A stretch of 64,000 nt of DNA from an uncultured Clostridia bacterium (GTDB taxonomy: Bacteria; Bacillota; Clostridia; Oscillospirales; CAG-272): the NCBI GenBank assembly GCA_944381085.1, contig CALWJX010000001.1, positions 83,428-147,427 of the forward strand, in the 5' to 3' direction. A program made the position numbers and the translations under genes. Below the pieces are notes generated by a model that made no database searches, was not told the origin of the DNA, and worked only from the letters and a program-made list of their open reading frames with translations. This document shows, in pieces, positions 1-13,186 of this stretch; the first letter of the stretch is position 1; every line of letters starts with the position of its first letter.

Positions 1-2
1 GC

Positions 3-1007
3 TTTTCCGGCGCCGGAGACATCTCAATCGGAGATACCGTGACAAGTGTGTCAAATCCCGAACCGCTCGAATTTGTAAAGGTAAGCGAGCCCACTGTGGA
101 GATGACTTTTTCGGTAAACGACAGTCCGCTTGCGGGAAAAGAGGGCAAGTTTGTAACCTCCCGCCAGCTTCGCGAAAGGTTGTACAGAGAGCTTTTGCGA
201 GATGTTTCACTGCGTGTCCGCGACGGAGAGACGACCGATGAGTTTATCGTGTCCGGAAGAGGAGAGATGCATCTTTCCATCCTTATTGAAAACATGAGAC
301 GTGAGGGCTATGAGCTTACCTGCTCGAATCCCAAGGTGATTTTAAAGACCATAGACGGAGTTGAGTGCGAGCCTATGGAGCGCGTCACGCTTGACGTGCC
401 GAATGATTATGTGGGCGCCGTAATAGAAAAGCTCGGTCAGCGCAAGGGAGATCTGCTTGAAATGAATCCTGTCGGAAGCCGGATGCGAATTGAATACAGT
501 ATTCCGTCCCGCTGCCTGTTCGGGTATCGCTCCGAGTTTCTTTCGGCGACTCACGGAGAGGGCGTGCTCAATACGATATTTGACGGATATCAGCCGTACA
601 GAGGCGGCGTCATAATGAGATTTACCGGCGCGCTTGTGGCATCCGAGGCGGGAGTTACCACAAGATACGGACTGTATAATGTACAGGAGAGAGGGAGTCT
701 TTTCGTGGGTCCTCAGGTGCAGGTTTATGAAGGTATGATAGTCGGGGAAAATCCCAAAAACGACGATATTCCGGTAAATCCCTGCAAGGAAAAGCACCTT
801 ACGGCGATCCGTTCTTCGGGCGCCGACGAAAAGCTTATTCTGACTCCTCCCAGAATTTTCGGGCTTGAGGAGGCGATAGAGTTTATTGCCGACGACGAAC
901 TTATCGAGGTCACTCCGAAATCAATCAGACTGCGCAAAAAGATACTCAACACCGAGCAACGCATGAAAGAAATGATGAAGGCGAGAAGAGCGGCACAGGA
1001 AGCCTGA
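3..1007 (+). CDS. typA: Translational GTPase TypA/BipA, C-terminal part (5' end outside window)
   Basis: Frame is open from base 3 (FSGAGDISIGDTV...). EPTVEMTFSVNDSPLAGKEGKFVTSRQLRERL and GEMHLSILIENMRREGYEL match TypA domains by eye. Stop at 1005-1007. Confidence 0.9.
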   Translation, partial: FSGAGDISIGDTVTSVSNPEPLEFVKVSEPTVEMTFSVNDSPLAGKEGKFVTSRQLRERLYRELLRDVSLRVRDGETTDEFIVSGRGEMHLSILIENMRREGYELTCSNPKVILKTIDGVECEPMERVTLDVPNDYVGAVIEKLGQRKGDLLEMNPVGSRMRIEYSIPSRCLFGYRSEFLSATHGEGVLNTIFDGYQPYRGGVIMRFTGALVASEAGVTTRYGLYNVQERGSLFVGPQVQVYEGMIVGENPKNDDIPVNPCKEKHLTAIRSSGADEKLILTPPRIFGLEEAIEFIADDELIEVTPKSIRLRKKILNTEQRMKEMMKARRAAQEA

Positions 1008-1078
1008 TATCCGCATGGCTGTACTTTCCGTATTTCGTACTTTATGTTAAGATTGAGTTGTAATAATATATGATAAAA

Positions 1079-1116
1079 CCCCGCGGAAACGTGTTGTATC
1101 GTGCCGCGGGATTTAT
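1079..1116 (+). terminator. Candidate intrinsic terminator after typA
   Basis: CCCGCGG (1080-1086) pairs with CCGCGGG (1104-1110), followed by ATTTAT. The 17-nt loop is long, so support is moderate only. Confidence 0.45.
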
Positions 1117-1173
1117 ACATTATAAAAATAATATCATACAATTAAAAAAATAAAATTTTTTTAAAAAATAGTA

Positions 1174-1202
1174 TTGTATTTTTGTCAAAAATGTGCTATA
1201 AT
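1174..1202 (+). promoter_or_regulatory. Sigma-A-type promoter for the RiPP-like operon
   Basis: TTGTAT (1174-1179), 17-nt spacer, extended -10 TGcTATAAT (TATAAT at 1197-1202). Confidence 0.5.
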
Positions 1203-1261
1203 CTGTTCTCAAGGGAATGATCTGTTTTTTAGTTTGATATTTGAAAGGAATTTTATAATTT

Positions 1262-1384
1262 ATGAAATATGAAAAACCTATAGTTATTATTTATGATGAA
1301 GAAGTAATGAAAGAATTGGAAGCAATGGCGTCTTCCAAATGCCATTGTACTTCAAGTGGTTCAAGAGTAAGTTATGATGAGTAA
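1262..1384 (+). CDS. 40-aa candidate RiPP precursor peptide (MKYEKPIVIIYDEEVMKELEAMASSKCHCTSSGSRVSYDE), absent from the ORF track because it is under 60 aa
   Basis: ATG at 1262 lies about 11 nt after GAAAGGA. TAA at 1382-1384. It sits 58 nt upstream of, and co-directional with, a radical SAM/SPASM gene. Acidic leader-like N-half, then a Cys/Ser-rich C-half (CHC, SSGS). Confidence 0.65.
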   Translation: MKYEKPIVIIYDEEVMKELEAMASSKCHCTSSGSRVSYDE

Positions 1385-1442
1385 AATGAAATTTTGAAAT
1401 AGTTAGATCATTCCCTGATTATTCGATATATAAGGAGTTCAT

Positions 1443-2798
1443 ATGCTTTTTTCCTTTCAAGACTATGTATTTGATTCCGATAGGTTAATTATTTATAATA
1501 TATCCGAGAGCAAAGAGTTTATTGATGTTTTAAAATTAAAATTTGATATTGAAGAAAAAAATAAAGCTGTTTTAGCCGAACTAATATCCAATAAATCGGA
1601 AAATATGCGTATGGATAAAATTGCAATTAACAGAGCAGGCATTTGTTTGACGTATAATTGTAATTTGAGATGCGATTATTGCAGTAATTCCTCCGGCGAT
1701 AATGATACAAATATACTTACAATCGAAGATGTTCAGGTATACATAAAAGACATTATCAAAAAAAGTATAATAAGCAGACTTATAAATAAAAAAATCAAAC
1801 CATTAAATATTTATTTTACTGGAGGGGGAGAGCCTACTTTTAGGTGGGATTTATTCAGAGAGTCGGTTTTATTTATAAAAGAAGAGTGCACGAAAAATAA
1901 TATACCATTGTTTCTCGGTTTAACAACGAACGGCGTTTTGAATGATGAACAGATTGGCTTTATTAGTGACAACGTTGATCATATAATGATATCCTATGAT
2001 GGTTTGCCGGAATTACAGAATAAAAACAGGAAATCGGCAAACCAACAGTGTACAAATGAAATTGTGGAAAATACCATAAAAAGATTATCTGATAAAAAAA
2101 TATCAATGAATGTAAGAACCACTGTTTGGGAAGACGACTATTTTAAATTACGTAGAATGTATGACCATGTTTTTTCATTGGTGGGTGATAACCCGAATGC
2201 GAAGTGGAGTGTTTATCCGACTTTTTATGAGGGTCGTGCATTGGAGAATTTAAAAAATCATGGTAAGACCAATAAAAGTTTTTTATATTATTATATTTCA
2301 TTATTGGATTATATTATTTTGGAGAAAGGCAAGGATAAGTTGAATACTGTCGAAGTCCCATTGTATAATAACGAAATCAGTGAAATCTTTTGCGGAGAGT
2401 ACAGATGCAATAATCCATGGTTACTTCCGGACAAATCAATTGTAACTTGTATAGAGTCATGTAAAGGAAATCAAACAGTAATAGGAAAAATCAATGAAGG
2501 CAAAGTAGAATATTATCATAAATATAATGATAAATTGCTTGAAATAATTCAGCAGAAGTTTGTTGAATGTCGGGAGTGTATTGCATACAATTTTTGTAAA
2601 GGAGGATGTCCCATTTGGGAATTGAGAAATATAAATAAAGACAGCGAATTGCCTGAATGTATGGCTCAGAAAGAATACTGGACTTACGTCATTGAAGCTA
2701 TGTTATTGGGTAAGTACAGTTTTGGATGGCGTCTGCAAAAAATCTGCGTACAAAATTATGAACAGCATGAGGCATATAAATTGGTTTTTGATAAATAA
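1443..2798 (+). CDS. Radical SAM enzyme with C-terminal SPASM domain (peptide-modifying maturase type)
   Basis: CNLRCDYC (CX3CX2C) near residue 72. C-terminal CRECIAYNFCKGGC (CX2CX5CX3C) plus further Cys residues is typical of SPASM auxiliary clusters. RBS AAGGAG lies upstream. Confidence 0.9.
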   Translation: MLFSFQDYVFDSDRLIIYNISESKEFIDVLKLKFDIEEKNKAVLAELISNKSENMRMDKIAINRAGICLTYNCNLRCDYCSNSSGDNDTNILTIEDVQVYIKDIIKKSIISRLINKKIKPLNIYFTGGGEPTFRWDLFRESVLFIKEECTKNNIPLFLGLTTNGVLNDEQIGFISDNVDHIMISYDGLPELQNKNRKSANQQCTNEIVENTIKRLSDKKISMNVRTTVWEDDYFKLRRMYDHVFSLVGDNPNAKWSVYPTFYEGRALENLKNHGKTNKSFLYYYISLLDYIILEKGKDKLNTVEVPLYNNEISEIFCGEYRCNNPWLLPDKSIVTCIESCKGNQTVIGKINEGKVEYYHKYNDKLLEIIQQKFVECRECIAYNFCKGGCPIWELRNINKDSELPECMAQKEYWTYVIEAMLLGKYSFGWRLQKICVQNYEQHEAYKLVFDK

Positions 2799-2820
2799 TA
2801 CTGTTTAATGGAGGTGAAAA

Positions 2821-3135
2821 ATGTTACTTAATGGCAAAGTAATTGAGATTGTATCCTATACCTCGGAGAATATAGATGATGACTTAATTATATATAATGA
2901 ATCATTTAAAAAAATTATAATATTAAATCATACTGCAAAGTATGTGTGGAATTTAATAGTTGGCTGTTATAATAATGGTGAAGACATTGAGGTATCCGAT
3001 ATAGTTTCACATATTAAAGATGTATATAATATATCTCAATGTGAAGACGATAACATTTATAATGATGTGGAAGAAACCTTAGATTTGTTTTTTAAAGCGT
3101 CACTTTTGCGATGTTCTGATGAGGAGCATAATTAA
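2821..3135 (+). CDS. PqqD-like protein (candidate RiPP recognition element)
   Basis: 104 aa, directly after the rSAM gene. The pattern IILNHTAKYVWNLI...DIVSHIKDVYNIS...DVEETLDLFFKASLL resembles the PqqD family profile as I recall it. Confidence 0.7.
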   Translation: MLLNGKVIEIVSYTSENIDDDLIIYNESFKKIIILNHTAKYVWNLIVGCYNNGEDIEVSDIVSHIKDVYNISQCEDDNIYNDVEETLDLFFKASLLRCSDEEHN

Positions 3136-3137
3136 GT

Positions 3138-3959
3138 ATGAAATGCTTTTACAGGTATATTGATAATATACAAATTAGTATTATAATAGAAAATGAACTA
3201 TATGAAGAACACAAATTAATTTTTGATTCGCTATTTATAACATTTTTAGATTATCAAAAAAAAGGATTTTTCAATAATTATTTGTATTATATTTATAAAA
3301 GCAAAAATAATTTGAACGAAATAATACATAATTATAAAATAAGTGATTCGGCAGATAATGATTGGATTTTTTCGCTGATAAATGATTTGGAAAACTTTTA
3401 TGCCGATATATTAAACTGCACTGTGTTGCACGGCTCATGCATACAGATTGAAGGAAAAAATATATTATTGATAGGCGAAAGATGGTCGGGAAAGACAACA
3501 TTGACACAATATTTAACAATAGACATGAAGTGTGGATTTGTCAGCGACGACTGTATTTATCTTTTAAATAATATGCTTATTGGCTTTGGAATGCCGTTGC
3601 CTGTACGCGGTGAAAAAATAGATAATACATATAAAGATTTTTTTATTGGCGCAACGGTAGATTCTGACGGTACAAATCGCATTCTTTACGCTCCTCCGAA
3701 TATAGTTGAAAGAGTTTTTTCTGTCGACTCGGTAATATTCTCTAAATATGTTGAAAGTAAAAACGCAAATATAATTAAGTTGAAATCGGGAGAAGCACTT
3801 GAAAGATTAATAAGAAATGTTCGTTCAAAAAGTACAATGAGTACTTTATTTAATGATATGGTAAGAATATCTAAATTATCAGATTGTTATGTTATGCAAT
3901 ACCCGAGTTGCAATATCGCTTATGAAATGATTTTAGGAGTTATTTTTGATGAAAAATAG
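3138..3959 (+). CDS. HPr kinase/phosphorylase-like P-loop protein
   Basis: LHGSCIQIEGKNILLIGERWSGKTTLTQYL...GFVSDDCIYL parallels the HprK core (HG..v...G.gvLi.G.SG.GKS....L...G..lvaDD). Confidence 0.6.
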   Translation: MKCFYRYIDNIQISIIIENELYEEHKLIFDSLFITFLDYQKKGFFNNYLYYIYKSKNNLNEIIHNYKISDSADNDWIFSLINDLENFYADILNCTVLHGSCIQIEGKNILLIGERWSGKTTLTQYLTIDMKCGFVSDDCIYLLNNMLIGFGMPLPVRGEKIDNTYKDFFIGATVDSDGTNRILYAPPNIVERVFSVDSVIFSKYVESKNANIIKLKSGEALERLIRNVRSKSTMSTLFNDMVRISKLSDCYVMQYPSCNIAYEMILGVIFDEK

Positions 3960-5730
3960 TTTTAAAAAATGGAAAAATTTGACGTGGCTATGCCGCCCCT
4001 ATTGGAAATATGGCAAGGTTTACGTTATTTTATCCTTGTTTTTTGTTGTTATAATGTCGCCTCTTGATGAAATGCTATATGTTTATTCGCCTGAAATAAT
4101 CGTAAGATCTCTGAATGAAGGTCGTTCTTTTTCGTATCTTGTAGTTGTCGCTTTGATAATAGCAGGCGCTAATTTTATAAAAAGTATACCAAGGATGATC
4201 TGTAGTCCGTATTTCACTAAAAAACAAACCGAGATTAACATGAAAGTAAAACGCAACATATATGTAAAGGCGATGGAGATAGACTACAAATATGTGGATT
4301 CTCCCGAATATTACAATGAGTATGCCTGGGCTATGAACGAGTATGTACAGCAGACAAACCAAGCGTTCAGTTTTTCAAAGCGTTTTCTTTCGGCTCTTTT
4401 CAGTATTATAACTCTTTTTTCAATTGTTATGGTGATAGGTCCGTGGCTTATTGTGATAGAGATAATACAGTTGATTTTACAGAAGCTTTTGCTTGCAAGA
4501 AGAAACAAGATTGATATTTGTAAGAAAAACGAAACAGTTCCGGTGGAACGGCGTCTTTCGTATTTTCACAGACTGTTTTATCTTAAAGAGTATTCGGCGG
4601 ATATAAAGACCACGCCTTTAAAGCGATTTGCCTTTGACGGATATGACAAGTCGGGTAAAGAGCAGGTAGATATAAATACCAAGTATGAGAAAAAAGGCGC
4701 GGTTTGTTATATCACTCAGGAATTTCTTTTTATTGTCACCGAGTTTGTTTTGACCTTATATCTTGTACATAGCATTATTGAAGGCAACATTGTGGACGCC
4801 GCTCTGTATATAACCATGAATCTTTCGTTTTACAGGCTTGATTCAAATCTTTACAATCTGATACAGTTGATGGAGGAAGCCAACAATATCTCTATGAACG
4901 CGGATAAAATAAGAGAATTTTTCGATATAAAGTCCAACATTGAGACCAAAAGCACAGACGTACAAATAACCGAGATACATGACCCGTTCGCGGTGCGGTT
5001 TAAAAATGTCGGCTTCTCATATGAAAACTCTGATTTTGCGATTTCGGATTTGAACCTTGATATAAAACCCGGAGAAAAAATCGCCATTGTGGGAGAAAAC
5101 GGAGCCGGGAAATCCACTTTTGTCAAGCTTTTGATGAGGCTGTATGACGTTACGGACGGAGATATTCTTATAAACGGCATTTCAATAAAGGATTATGATG
5201 TGGAACTGTTGCGGCAGCACGTGGGAGTCGCCTTTCAGAACACTAATGTTTATGCCATGAGTTTTGCGGACAATGTATCGCTGTTCAACAAGATATCAGA
5301 GGAAGAGCTTGAGAGAATTTCAAAGGAATACGAATTGGATTCCATTCTTGAAAAAAACCATGCCGATTTTAATTCGGAGCTGACCAGAGAGTTCAGTCCG
5401 GACGGAATAATCCTTTCGGGCGGAGAAGTGCAGAAGATCGCGCTTGCCAGACTTATGACAAAAAAATGGGGACTGCTTTTGCTCGATGAGCCTTCCTCAG
5501 CGCTTGACCCCTTGGCGGAATACAAGCTGAGTAAGCTTATTTTGAGCACCGCCAACCGGGCTACCACTATAATAGTCGCTCACAGACTGTCCACGATACG
5601 GGATGCCGACAGAATAATAGTAATGGAGCGCGGAAAGCTTGAGGAATGCGGCACTCACGATGAACTGATGGAAAAACACGGAAAGTATTATGAAATGTTT
5701 ACCAAACAGGCGGAAAATTATATAAATTAA
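3949..5730 (+). CDS. ABC transporter, fused permease/ATP-binding exporter with no N-terminal peptidase domain
   Basis: N-terminal TM-rich half. Walker A GENGAGKST, signature LSGGEVQK, Walker B LLLLDEPSSALD. ATG 3949 is 9 nt after AGGAG and overlaps the upstream gene. Confidence 0.9.
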   Translation: MKNSFKKWKNLTWLCRPYWKYGKVYVILSLFFVVIMSPLDEMLYVYSPEIIVRSLNEGRSFSYLVVVALIIAGANFIKSIPRMICSPYFTKKQTEINMKVKRNIYVKAMEIDYKYVDSPEYYNEYAWAMNEYVQQTNQAFSFSKRFLSALFSIITLFSIVMVIGPWLIVIEIIQLILQKLLLARRNKIDICKKNETVPVERRLSYFHRLFYLKEYSADIKTTPLKRFAFDGYDKSGKEQVDINTKYEKKGAVCYITQEFLFIVTEFVLTLYLVHSIIEGNIVDAALYITMNLSFYRLDSNLYNLIQLMEEANNISMNADKIREFFDIKSNIETKSTDVQITEIHDPFAVRFKNVGFSYENSDFAISDLNLDIKPGEKIAIVGENGAGKSTFVKLLMRLYDVTDGDILINGISIKDYDVELLRQHVGVAFQNTNVYAMSFADNVSLFNKISEEELERISKEYELDSILEKNHADFNSELTREFSPDGIILSGGEVQKIALARLMTKKWGLLLLDEPSSALDPLAEYKLSKLILSTANRATTIIVAHRLSTIRDADRIIVMERGKLEECGTHDELMEKHGKYYEMFTKQAENYIN

Positions 5731-5844: not shown

Positions 5845-6720
5845 TTACACGCTATGACCGAGTTCCTCATACAGTTTATCTGAAAGCCGGCAGAAATCCT
5901 TTACCGTGAGTTTCTCTCCCCGGATATCCGCGCTGTGCCCGCATGAAGTTATTATTTCCGTGAGCCTTTGCTTTTGTATTTCCGGAAATCCTGTCAAAAG
6001 CGAGTTTGCGAGTGTTTTTCTCCTTTGCTCAAACGCCGCTTTAACCGTTCTGAAAAAGATATCCTCGTTTGAAGGAACGACCGGCTTTTCTTTCCATAGT
6101 TTAATCTGAACCACAGAGGAGTCGACTTTCGGTACCGGCATGAAGTTGTCCGACGTTACGGTGAAAAGAGCGTTTGTCTGTCCGAAATAGTCTATTGCCG
6201 CGGTAATTGCGCCGCAGTTTTTGTTTCCGGCTCCCGCGCATATTCTGTCAGCCACCTCCGACTGAACCATTACCGTAATACTGTCGAACGGCAGCCGGCT
6301 TTCCAAAAGCTTCATAAGTATGGGAGTTGTGATATAATAAGGCAGGTTTGCGCAGACCGAAACCTTTCCCGCGGAAAAATACGGCTTTAAGATTTCCTCA
6401 AGATTTGTTTTCATCACATCGCTGTTTTCGACCCGGACGTTTTTATATCCGTCAAGCGTATAACGCAGTACAGGTATAAGTCCCCCGTCTATTTCAAGGG
6501 CGACAACATTGCGATAACGCGCGGCAAGCTCGCGTGTAAGGCAACCTATGCCGGGACCTATTTCAAGAACGGTTATGTCGGCGTCATCGGAGCAGCAGTA
6601 CGCGATATCCTCGACTGTGCCGTGATTTATAAGAAAATTTTGTCCGAATTCCTTTTTGAATTTCAGTCCGAACATGTCCATGACCTGTTTTATGGTCTTT
6701 GGGTTGCATAGGTCGAGCAT
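5845..6720 (-). CDS. rsmA: 16S rRNA (adenine1518/1519-N6)-dimethyltransferase
   Basis: FGQNFL motif and LEIGPGIGCLT SAM-binding motif. Its start overlaps the upstream stop (TGATG). Confidence 0.95.
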   Translation of the reverse strand: MLDLCNPKTIKQVMDMFGLKFKKEFGQNFLINHGTVEDIAYCCSDDADITVLEIGPGIGCLTRELAARYRNVVALEIDGGLIPVLRYTLDGYKNVRVENSDVMKTNLEEILKPYFSAGKVSVCANLPYYITTPILMKLLESRLPFDSITVMVQSEVADRICAGAGNKNCGAITAAIDYFGQTNALFTVTSDNFMPVPKVDSSVVQIKLWKEKPVVPSNEDIFFRTVKAAFEQRRKTLANSLLTGFPEIQKQRLTEIITSCGHSADIRGEKLTVKDFCRLSDKLYEELGHSV

Positions 6721-8167: not shown

Positions 8168-9238
8168 TTATATATTTGCCGCTATCATATCTCCCATTTC
8201 GGAGCACGAAAGCTTCCTGCAACCCTCCTGCATAATATCGGAGGTTCTGTAATTTTGGTTCAGAACACTGTTGACGGCGTTTTCGATGTCGTCGGCTTCT
8301 TTTGCCATATCAAACGAGTAGCGGAGCATCATCGCAGCGGAGAGGACAGTTCCTATAGGGTTGGCAATATTCATTCCCGCAATATCGGGAGCCGAGCCGT
8401 GTATGGGCTCATACATTCCGAGGGTGGTTGACGACAGCGAGGCGGATGGCATCATGCCTATCGAGCCTGTAAGCATCGAAGCCTCATCGGAAAGTATGTC
8501 TCCGAACATATTTTCGGTGACTATAACGTCGAACTGAGCGGGATTTTTTATCAGCTGCATTGCGGTATTGTCAACAAGTATGTCGCTGTATTCGACCTGG
8601 GGATACTCTTCGGAAAGCCTGTGCATGGTCTTTCTCCACAGGCGAGATGTGTCAAGCACATTTGCCTTATCTACGGAAGCAAGCTTTTTGTTCCTCTTCA
8701 TGGCGCAGTCAAACGCGACTCTGCCTATTCTTTCGATTTCATGCTCATAGTAAGACATCACATCGTAAGAATACATTTCGCCGTTCTTTTCCTCGGTTTT
8801 TCTTTCGCCGAAATATATACCTCCGGTAAGCTCGCGCACTATCATCAGGTCAATTCCGTTTCCGACAACCGACTGCTTGAGCGGAGATGAGTCAGCCAGC
8901 TGTAAAAACAGCTTTGTGGGACGGAGATTGGCGAAAAGCCCGAGTTCTTTTCTTACAGCCAGAAGCGCCTTTTCCGGACGTATCGAGGGTGGACATGAAT
9001 CCCACTTCGGACCTCCCACCGCGCCGAGCAGAACGCTGTCCGCGCCTTTACACTTTTCCATTCCCTCGTCGGTTATCGGTACTCCGAATTTGTCGATTGA
9101 GCATCCTCCGATATCGACATATGTATACTTGAAAGTGTGATTGTATTTATGAGCGATTTTATCAAGCACTTTTATCGCTTCTCTGACGATTTCGGGACCT
9201 ATGCCGTCGCCGGAAAGCACTGTTATTTTCTTTTCCAT
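8168..9238 (-). CDS. leuB: 3-isopropylmalate dehydrogenase
   Basis: ITVLSGDGIGPEI and LLGAVGGPKWD motifs, 356 aa, in leu operon context. Confidence 0.95.
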   Translation of the reverse strand: MEKKITVLSGDGIGPEIVREAIKVLDKIAHKYNHTFKYTYVDIGGCSIDKFGVPITDEGMEKCKGADSVLLGAVGGPKWDSCPPSIRPEKALLAVRKELGLFANLRPTKLFLQLADSSPLKQSVVGNGIDLMIVRELTGGIYFGERKTEEKNGEMYSYDVMSYYEHEIERIGRVAFDCAMKRNKKLASVDKANVLDTSRLWRKTMHRLSEEYPQVEYSDILVDNTAMQLIKNPAQFDVIVTENMFGDILSDEASMLTGSIGMMPSASLSSTTLGMYEPIHGSAPDIAGMNIANPIGTVLSAAMMLRYSFDMAKEADDIENAVNSVLNQNYRTSDIMQEGCRKLSCSEMGDMIAANI

Positions 9239-12915: not shown

Positions 12916-13186
12916 AAAAAATAAGCCCTCATCTCCAAAAAACAGAGACGAAAGCACAATTTCTTCCGCGGTACCACTCCGATTGACAGTAATCCACTCA
13001 ATACGTACATTTAATACGTTTTCTCTTTAACGGGAGAACCCGTCGTTCCTACTCGAAAAAAACTTTCGGTCCGAAGCTCAGGGGAGAGTTCGATATTGCA
13101 CAAGCCTTTGTCTCGCACCGCCCGACAAATCTCTGAAGAACTTTTAAAGAATATCTTATGCCCCGTCATAGCCTTTTGACTTATTA
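12916..13186 (-). promoter_or_regulatory. T-box leader (probably Leu-specific) with intrinsic terminator, upstream of leuACDB
   Basis: Minus strand reads AATCGGAGTGGTACCGCGG (T-box motif, plus-strand 12966-12984). An F-box-like CCGTTA lies upstream of it. AGAGA and GGTGCGA elements are in the Stem I region. The terminator GCTTTCGTCTC/GAGATGAGGGC (12925-12955) is followed by TTATTTTTT. Confidence 0.85.

Follow-up and report, generated by a model that had tools for sequence, protein, structure and literature searches.

A compact five-gene operon predicted to join a radical SAM/SPASM enzyme to the recognition, kinase and export genes of LPP-type peptide pathways

A compact gene cluster with the look of a peptide biosynthesis pathway was previously noticed in a 64,000-nucleotide stretch of DNA from an uncultured Clostridia bacterium (assembly GCA_944381085.1, contig CALWJX010000001.1; the whole stretch is called the window below). 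It was therefore decided to follow up this preliminary description with profile searches, structure prediction and a comparison with related loci, which are numbered L001, L002 and so on where they have to be told apart. The cluster consists of five intact open reading frames (ORFs) on the + strand, which run in one direction from 1262 to 5730 and take up less than 4.6 kb in total:

1262-1384, + strand: precursor peptide, 40 amino acids (aa), MKYEKPIVIIYDEEVMKELEAMASSKCHCTSSGSRVSYDE; from the ORF list and 20 homologous peptides
1443-2798, + strand: radical S-adenosylmethionine (SAM)/SPASM peptide maturase, 451 aa; from PF04055, invariant cysteines and an AlphaFold2 model
2821-3135, + strand: discrete recognition element (RRE) for peptides synthesised ribosomally and modified post-translationally (RiPPs), PqqD fold, lasso-B1/LppB type, 104 aa; from PF05402, a PDB profile search and hhalign
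3138-3959, + strand: HprK-like P-loop kinase, 273 aa; from weak hidden Markov model matches, motifs and the AlphaFold2 fold
3946-5730, + strand: MsbA-like ATP-binding cassette (ABC) exporter, fused transmembrane and nucleotide-binding domains, 594 aa, without a C39 domain; from TIGR02203 and PF00005

The genes are separated by 58, 22 and 2 nt, apart from the final two, which overlap by 14 nt, in agreement with the layout first described. We take the five genes to be real and not chance ORFs, because the radical SAM protein has 154 homologues in a collection of 5.8 billion proteins (nearly all metagenomic, including human-gut and goat-gut samples, with a few from archaeal genomes), because 20 homologous precursor peptides were retrieved by profile search, and because the gene order is repeated in independent contigs. 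Species-representative genomes scanned with the single radical SAM protein gave no match. Alignment-based scans of genomes and metagenomes returned mostly generic radical SAM genes, the true family being found there only in Methanocorpusculum, two truncated remnants, L087 and L088.

The order precursor, radical SAM, PqqD-like, kinase and ABC gene is kept in L001, L002, L167, L175/L176 and L177-L180. At every locus with readable context a short ORF lies directly upstream of the radical SAM gene and a PqqD gene downstream of it; the exception is the group L177-L180, in which one 287-aa gene stands between the precursor and the radical SAM gene. Precursor, radical SAM enzyme and discrete RRE form a conserved trio, and kinase and pump are also conserved in the clade nearest the window. 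The family members without a kinase are L087/L168-170, L088, L003 and L005.

The precursor combines a leader with Y3-x-x-P6-x-V8, a pair of serines (Ser24/Ser25) and the core motif C27-H-C29-T-S-S-G-S-R35. When it was aligned with the precursors of L001, L002, L168 and L167, residues Y3, K5, P6, D12, C29, T30 and G33 were invariant in all five. Three of these relatives, each homologous to the window peptide, read as follows:

L001 precursor: MEYEKPTILIYDEEVLKELQAMASSKCNCTASGSRVCYEA
L002 precursor: MVYIKPTAVIYDQEVMKEIEAAAASTCHCTASGSKVCHKPTY
L168 precursor: MMIYQKPSVFVIDKDLVEALLPVYEVACHCTSGGARVCYGASSLVN

The short upstream ORFs of the relatives keep the leader Y-x-K-P-x-V and the core C-x-C-T-x-S-G-S-R/K. 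The precursor family diverges fast. The cores of L005 and L088 are divergent, and cysteine is all that every core shares, the distant cores of L088, L167 and L005 among them. The preliminary description had read the cluster as a peptide-modifying pathway and had suggested looking for a short ORF ahead of the radical SAM homologues. Such ORFs were indeed found, with conserved leader and core, and the assignment to a RiPP pathway is supported by this conservation. A21-M22-A23 is a candidate cleavage site, since A-x-A just upstream of the core fits signal-peptidase specificity; cleavage after it would give a 17-residue predicted core, SSKCHCTSSGSRVSYDE. The leaders of the family have Y-x-x-P-x-[V/I/L], and YxxP is described in the literature as a lasso-class recognition sequence; the linear polyphosphorylated peptide (LPP) family discussed below uses the motif too.

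A multi-core precursor was observed in L003 (Chitinispirillales), where a 105-aa peptide encoded at 4578-4895 carries three tandem cores, ACKCTMGQSK, ACHCTMGQAR and ACHCANGGSR, separated by P-x-x-D-K-L-R-P linkers. In this cluster VWA, PP2C and Ser/Thr kinase genes lie downstream in place of the ABC pump.

The radical SAM protein contains CNLRCDYC at residues 73-80 and CRECIAYNFCKGGC at residues 376-389 of its 451 residues. An alignment of 36 homologues revealed that C73, C77 and C80 (CX3CX2C) are invariant, and that C317, C336, C376, C379, C385, C389 and C406 are likewise invariant. The seven further cysteines make up a full SPASM domain for two auxiliary 4Fe-4S clusters, and the motifs named in the preliminary description were confirmed. 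The Pfam family Radical_SAM (PF04055) was matched at 56.4 bits (cut-off 29.5). The best NCBIfam match was PapB (NF047865), at 99.5 bits and below its cut-off of 340, and the SCIFF/sactipeptide-type models also stayed below theirs (TIGR03974, 66.6 vs 425 bits; TIGR04068, 69.7 vs 500 bits). An anaerobic sulfatase maturase (anSME), which had been named at the outset as an example of a finding that would speak against a peptide substrate, was not indicated either: its models were missed by a wide margin (TIGR03942, 71.4 vs 349 bits; NF010321, 62.5 vs 441 bits), and the ORF list of the window has no sulfatase gene near the radical SAM gene. The AlphaFold2 model had a predicted local distance difference test (pLDDT) score of 90.2. 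Its nearest solved structure was the thioether-forming CteB (Foldseek E 5e-16), followed by anSME, SkfB, ChlB and SuiB, and a search of PDB sequences with the family profile placed anSME first and CteB second.

Residues 1-60 of the enzyme (nt 1443-1622) form an N-terminal extension, modelled as three short strands and two helices, with D11 and R14 conserved. A full RRE would be longer; the extension may be a relic to which the separate RRE docks.

For the remaining genes the closest comparison is with the LPP clusters (lppAKBSDN) of Paenibacillus alginolyticus, described by Popov et al., Nat Commun 2026 (PMC13381572). Their five core genes encode a signal-peptidase-like leader peptidase, an RRE, an HprK-like kinase, a nucleoside triphosphate (NTP) transferase and a pump like MsbA; the leader consensus is YxxPxVLxHQxIxFETxxS, and LppK polyphosphorylates Ser3 of the LPP core (PMC13381572). 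Radical SAM enzymes are mentioned nowhere in that paper (PMC13381572).

The third gene of the cluster had been called PqqD-like, and its product does pass the Pfam threshold for PqqD (PF05402, 26.4 bits against a gathering cut-off of 23.4; 27.8 bits for the L177 homologue). When the family profile was compared with the PDB, the sole significant match (E 0.0033) was to the lasso RRE TbiB1 and covered the full length. Alignment to LppB with hhalign gave E 3e-4 over 81 columns and paired N33 and D70 of LppB with the nearly invariant N36 and D82 of the family. In the LppB crystal structure, N33 and D70 hold the Pro kink and the Tyr hydroxyl of the leader. The protein is classed, on sequence grounds, as an RRE of the lasso-B1/LppB type and as the predicted reader of the YxxP leader; its nearest relatives are lasso B1 and LppB, not PqqD or MftB.

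The preliminary description had likened the cluster to SynChlorMet cassettes (ScmC, ScmD, ScmE, ScmF), and the gene kinds are superficially alike (radical SAM/SPASM, PqqD-like, HprK-like). A closer link is not supported. The RRE scored 13.1 bits against ScmD (TIGR04248) and the L177 homologue 18.7 bits, both against a cut-off of 100; the kinase gave no match to ScmC; and ScmE and ScmF were absent from the best 25 of 51 model matches of the radical SAM protein, hence below 35.5 bits. The two systems are alike at superfamily level only, and the term "SynChlorMet" occurred in no searchable paper. We consider it very improbable that the cluster is a SynChlorMet-type cassette, or a non-RiPP maturase system such as an anSME or a cofactor pathway like those for pyrroloquinoline quinone (PQQ) and mycofactocin. 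The faint ScmD matches (13-19 bits) and the position of anSME as best PDB sequence match would fit such a system, but the anSME models are far out of reach, no sulfatase or dehydrogenase partner gene is present, the RRE is not of the PqqD or MftB kind, and an export pump together with a fast-diverging precursor fits a secreted peptide.

Among NCBIfam models, the 273-aa product of the fourth gene matched TIGR04352, TIGR00679 and ClpX only, with HprK_rel_A (TIGR04352) at E 3e-5 and 23.3 bits (equivalog cut-off 200) and HPr kinase at E 1e-3. TIGR04352 matched 11 of 11 members of the kinase family (best E 7e-11); with no score above 50 bits, these kinases are homologous to it but are not equivalog-level members. 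Three elements do not vary among kinases with only 30-49% shared identity: H98-G99, the Walker A motif G113-x-R-x-x-G-K119-T, and D137-D138. A comparison of the kinase profile with PDB sequences gave generic P-loop matches (shikimate kinase, ClpX), with HprK at E 0.86, so structure prediction was needed to place the protein. The AlphaFold2 model (pLDDT 87.8) was matched by Foldseek to ATP-dependent phosphoenolpyruvate carboxykinase (E 6e-9, TM 0.5-0.59) and to HprK/P (E 2e-5 to 1e-3), two enzymes that share one fold. An exhaustive profile search retrieved 82 representatives with an E value of 1e-30 or lower and 1247 with one of 1e-3 or lower, and 8 of 10 sampled distant representatives matched HprK_rel_A weakly.

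The precursors point to a substrate for this kinase. In 7 of 7 kinase-containing loci a Ser is found just before the first Cys, in the form A-[SA]-S-[KT]-C or N-S-T-T-C (ASSKC, AASTC, ANSTTC). The kinase-less L087/L168 read EVAC at this junction, and two of the L003 repeats read AVAC/PVAC while the middle one, PSAC, has a Ser. Judging by this pattern, the probable substrate residue of the kinase is the Ser at the leader-core junction. Two other roles were considered and rejected: the Ser of G-S-R/K as an obligatory phosphosite, as L175 has G-A-R yet keeps the kinase, and lanthipeptide-like phosphorylation of Ser/Thr followed by elimination, as no lyase or cyclase is encoded.

Alternatively, the cluster could be an ordinary ranthipeptide or sactipeptide cluster with an HprK-like protein that is inactive or accessory, as a scaffold, an immunity protein or a regulatory ATPase. 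PapB as the best NCBIfam match and CteB as the best structural match agree with this explanation, and the kinase-less loci (L087/L168-170, L088, L003 and L005) indicate that the radical SAM chemistry is independent of the kinase. We regard it as unlikely all the same. The invariance of H98-G99, the Walker A Lys and D137-D138 at such low identity argues for retained catalysis, the kinase lies between RRE and exporter at every locus of the kinase-containing clade, and its presence tracks the junction Ser. Moreover, the homologous kinases of the LPP and paeninodin pathways phosphorylate their precursors, and the cut-offs of PapB (99.5 vs 340 bits) and SCIFF (66.6 vs 425 bits) are missed widely.

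The exporter matched MsbA (TIGR02203) at 216 bits over residues 24-586 and PF00005 at 102 bits, and it shares 57% identity with its L177 counterpart. Its alignment to the peptidase-containing exporters of TIGR03796 starts only at profile position 160; it is for this reason assigned no C39 peptidase domain, which bears out the first description. That description had also found no leader protease. None is present in the cluster, the peptidases of the relatives had no tblastn match in the 64-kb window, and the same search found no homologue of S24-type peptidase, NTP_transf_5, acyl carrier protein (ACP) or FkbH anywhere in it. Leader removal after A-x-A by a housekeeping signal peptidase is feasible.

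Fuller versions of the cassette were found among relatives with 50-53% identity in the radical SAM protein, in which the ABC exporter is followed by an S24-type peptidase of 126-140 aa and then by NTP_transf_5. The peptidase is present in L177-L180 (140 aa), L172 and L002/L175/L176, and a PF14907 NTP transferase in relatives that include L177-L180, L175/L176 and L002. The peptidase is 29% identical to LppS (BLASTP E 2e-11) and keeps the GTSMYP, HR and KGD motifs; among NCBIfam models, archaeal-type signal peptidase I fits it best (E 3e-7). The larger cassette thus corresponds to the LPP core genes with a radical SAM enzyme added, and the window has a reduced five-gene form. The L001 cluster (59% radical SAM identity) contains the same five genes, identically ordered; in the 2 kb of contig behind its pump there is no peptidase gene, and ACP and FkbH genes come next.

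A reduced form might also be a decaying remnant of an LPP-plus-radical-SAM cassette, whose mature product was lost with the peptidase and the NTP transferase. The S24-type peptidase, NTP_transf_5, ACP and FkbH homologues missing from the window would be expected on this account, and degraded versions do occur in L008 and L010 (truncated radical SAM gene), L171 (no radical SAM gene) and L173 (precursor and pump). However, the five ORFs of the window are full length compared with their homologues and their active-site residues are intact, L001 has the same set without a nearby peptidase, the ribosome-binding sites and an RNA helix around the precursor gene (see below) are retained, and a housekeeping signal peptidase could make the cut. 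Decay is accordingly given little weight, less than the reading as an ordinary cluster of the ranthipeptide or sactipeptide kind.

Of the known systems, the LPP family comes closest. Like LPP clusters, the window cluster combines a short precursor, whose leader has YxxPxV, with a discrete RRE, a kinase of the HprK-like kind and an exporter resembling MsbA, the likeness to LppK and LppD being one of family type. In L177-L180, L175/L176 and L002 a SipW-type peptidase and the PF14907 NTP transferase complete the five core genes. Phosphorylation is proven in LPP for a Ser at the start of the core, and in the window cluster it is predicted for a Ser in that place; both families are patchily distributed and occur in Bacillota. 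They differ in that the window-family operon includes a radical SAM/SPASM enzyme as an integral member, whereas the LPP product is linear and has no cross-linking enzyme. Window-family cores are short and contain Cys (C-x-C-T-x-S-G-S-R/K), whereas LPP cores are long and rich in Gly, Asn and Pro, and the window leader has the YxxPxV part only, without the HQxIxFETxxS of LPP. By tblastn of the whole window, the LppS-type peptidase and the LppN-type NTP transferase of LPP are also lacking. The window family comes mostly from gut, rumen and unspecified metagenome contigs, in contrast to the Bacilli isolates that yielded LPP.

Ranthipeptide and sactipeptide maturases (PapB, NF047865; CteB/SCIFF, TIGR03974; PDB 5WGG/5WHY) have in common with the window a radical SAM domain, a seven-Cys SPASM domain and a Cys-containing ribosomal peptide. 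CteB, however, has a full N-terminal RRE domain, whereas the RRE of the window is a separate lasso-type protein and the N-terminal extension of the radical SAM enzyme measures ~60 aa. Furthermore, the window leader is YxxP and not a sactipeptide-type motif, and a kinase is present, unlike in those systems. Paeninodin-type lasso clusters share the [Y/W]xxPx[L/V/I] leader, a B1-type RRE, an HprK-like kinase and an ABC exporter. Their kinase acts on a Ser of the precursor and would by analogy be a precedent for the window kinase. The lasso cyclase (C) and the B2 cysteine protease are unmatched among the five genes of the cluster; ring chemistry here would be radical-based.

The LPP and paeninodin-type lasso pathways are built on a chassis of RRE, kinase, exporter and YxxP leader, and its presence here had not been recognised in the preliminary description. 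This shared chassis provides the precedent for reading the kinase-like protein as a precursor-Ser kinase. The cluster stands outside PapB, SCIFF, anSME, lasso and LPP by their defining features: with PapB, SCIFF and anSME it has enzymes in common at superfamily level, and with lasso and LPP the chassis for recognition, kinase and export. A search of ~8.3 million full texts turned up neither an HprK-like kinase nor a YxxP leader in any report on a radical SAM/SPASM RiPP. The LPP family was itself described only in 2026, and in the window cluster the same chassis is also paired with a predicted radical SAM cross-linking enzyme. The combination is seen in metagenome contigs, including human-gut and animal-gut samples, and in some archaeal genomes.

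The base composition sets the cluster apart from its surroundings, with 26-32% GC across 1000-4000 and 33% over the whole cluster, against 44-48% in the flanks. The clusters of L177, L179 and L175, which belong to other hosts, show a like AT-rich contrast to their own flanks. The recurrence of this contrast in several hosts points to horizontal spread, and the operon of the window was presumably acquired in this way. When 72,556 plasmids were searched by tblastn with the radical SAM protein, the one match (24%) was irrelevant, and no sign of a plasmid origin was seen.

The reading that we favour, with moderate confidence, is a horizontally acquired five-gene RiPP operon in which radical SAM cross-linking has been joined to the RRE, kinase and export chassis of the LPP pathway. 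The RRE would bind the Y3-x-x-P6-x-V8 leader as lasso B1 and LppB proteins do and make the peptide accessible to the enzymes. With its one SAM cluster and its two auxiliary clusters, the radical SAM/SPASM enzyme would abstract hydrogen in the core, and C27 and C29 would be joined to downstream residues within C-x-C-T-x-S/G-G-S/A-R/K. The bonds could be thioethers of the sactipeptide or ranthipeptide type, with 2 Da lost per link. The HprK-like kinase would use ATP on Ser24 or Ser25, possibly repeatedly, like LppK and the paeninodin kinase, and the ABC pump would export the peptide. The leader would be cut after A21-M22-A23 by a peptidase encoded outside the window, a step that the SipW-type gene may serve in the fuller relatives. 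S-C links from C27 and C29 are plausible and are favoured because Cys is common to all cores and because the nearest characterised relatives, CteB and PapB, make thioethers.

Several observations weigh against this reading. The bond type (thioether, C-C, epimerisation or other) is a guess, because the radical SAM protein reaches no curated family cut-off. The homology to LppB and LppK is distant (hhalign probability 39%). The correlation between Ser and kinase rests on ~10 loci, several of them closely related, and the Ser of the GSR/K motif is not required, given the G-A-R of the kinase-containing L175. Finally, a window without peptidase and NTP transferase could be a partly decayed cassette, and truncated or stripped cassettes occur elsewhere (L008, L010, L171, L173).

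In addition to its proteins, the cluster has a predicted RNA structure around the precursor gene, which we call the bracket helix:

1212-1224, + strand: 5' arm of the bracket helix, 13 bp with 1404-1416
1404-1416, + strand: 3' arm, between the precursor stop codon and the ribosome-binding site of the radical SAM gene
L001, 1535-1546 and 1741-1752: bracket helix arms in a relative
L002, 357-372 and 612-627: bracket helix arms in a relative
L177, 7946-7958 and 8237-8249, and 7965-7974 and 8248-8257: bracket helix arms in a relative
L179, 7943-7955 and 8236-8248: bracket helix arms in a relative

The score of the helix was reached by 0 of 300 dinucleotide shuffles, and the helix is the closing stem of both the minimum free energy and the centroid fold of 1205-1425 (z = -3.58). 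Like-placed helices with different arm sequences were found in L001, L002, L177, L179 and L180. Their pairing is kept through one compensatory change, T-A to C-G (L177 vs L179/L180), and several wobble-preserving changes. The helix was significant against shuffles in 5 loci, and none of the kinase-less loci gave a significant one. It may serve to process or stabilise the precursor message, or to define it as a separate transcript, which suggests a means at the RNA level to have more precursor message than enzyme message. No known RNA family was detected within the cluster with Rfam.

These loci could form a RiPP class of their own, in which short C-x-C peptides receive two modifications, cross-links made by a dedicated radical SAM/SPASM enzyme and phosphorylation of the junction Ser by an HprK-like kinase, the radical SAM enzyme having been recruited into a lasso/LPP chassis and the precursor mRNA being set apart by the bracket helix. 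We put this broader proposal forward tentatively, at slightly less than even chances. If true, the lasso-type pair of RRE and leader is a portable module of three chemically unrelated pathways (lasso, LPP and radical SAM). YxxP leaders are not confined to lasso peptides, which matters for genome-mining tools that assign a class by recognition motif. A compact five-gene system with a 17-residue predicted core is also an easy target for heterologous expression, which might yield a new cross-link and a case of one RRE serving two unrelated enzymes.

Upstream of the precursor gene a promoter can be proposed:

1174-1202, + strand: candidate promoter with a weak -35 element TTGTAT (1174-1179), a 17-nt spacer and an extended -10 element TGCTATAAT (1194-1202); read by eye

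TGTG-n-TATAAT elements that resemble the candidate -10 were found upstream of the precursor in L001 and L002. A consensus scan did not list the candidate, because its -35 element fits the consensus at 3 of 6 positions only, and in the same scan promoter-like sites in the cluster region were no commoner than in shuffled sequence. Of the statement that all five genes lie behind one promoter, the by-eye candidate stands, as a predicted element, and the claim of a single promoter cannot be demonstrated.

On the left, the cluster is preceded by the 3' end of a translational-GTPase-like gene (39-1007, +), which we take from its sequence to be bipA/typA; a GC-rich hairpin, read by eye, follows it at 1080-1110. 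On the right lies a convergent methyltransferase gene (5845-6720, -), presumably rsmA. The sole Rfam match in the window is a T-box leader at 12941-13178 (-), with 98.8 bits against a gathering score of 93. It precedes a minus-strand operon whose last gene (8168-9238) we take to be leuB, and its presence indicates a host within Bacillota.

Several related loci carry further genes. An ACP gene together with a gene for an FkbH-domain protein (TIGR01686, 226 bits) was found in L001 (6230-8047), L171 (7461-9282), L179 (14889-16129) and L180 (9476-10727), which suggests that a glyceryl-type unit is attached to the peptide or to its phosphate. In L177-L180 a gene for a purple-acid-phosphatase-like metallophosphatase lies just upstream of the precursor. 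Precursor and pump alone remain in L173 (8001-10573)/L174. The truncated radical SAM genes lie at 629-1342 of L008 (Oscillospiraceae) and at 5004-5486 of L010 (Ruminiclostridium), and L171, which has lost the radical SAM gene, adjoins transposase genes and an agr-like locus.

In L167 a second, divergent RiPP operon (1-3189, -) adjoins the kinase-containing one. Its products are a 50-aa peptide whose leader contains WxxP (..KKWVKPSIKTI..), a protein of 181 aa, a peptidase of the S24 type, a PqqD protein and another radical SAM protein. The pairing of a signal-peptidase-like protease with a lasso-type RRE and a radical SAM enzyme therefore occurs in more than one operon.

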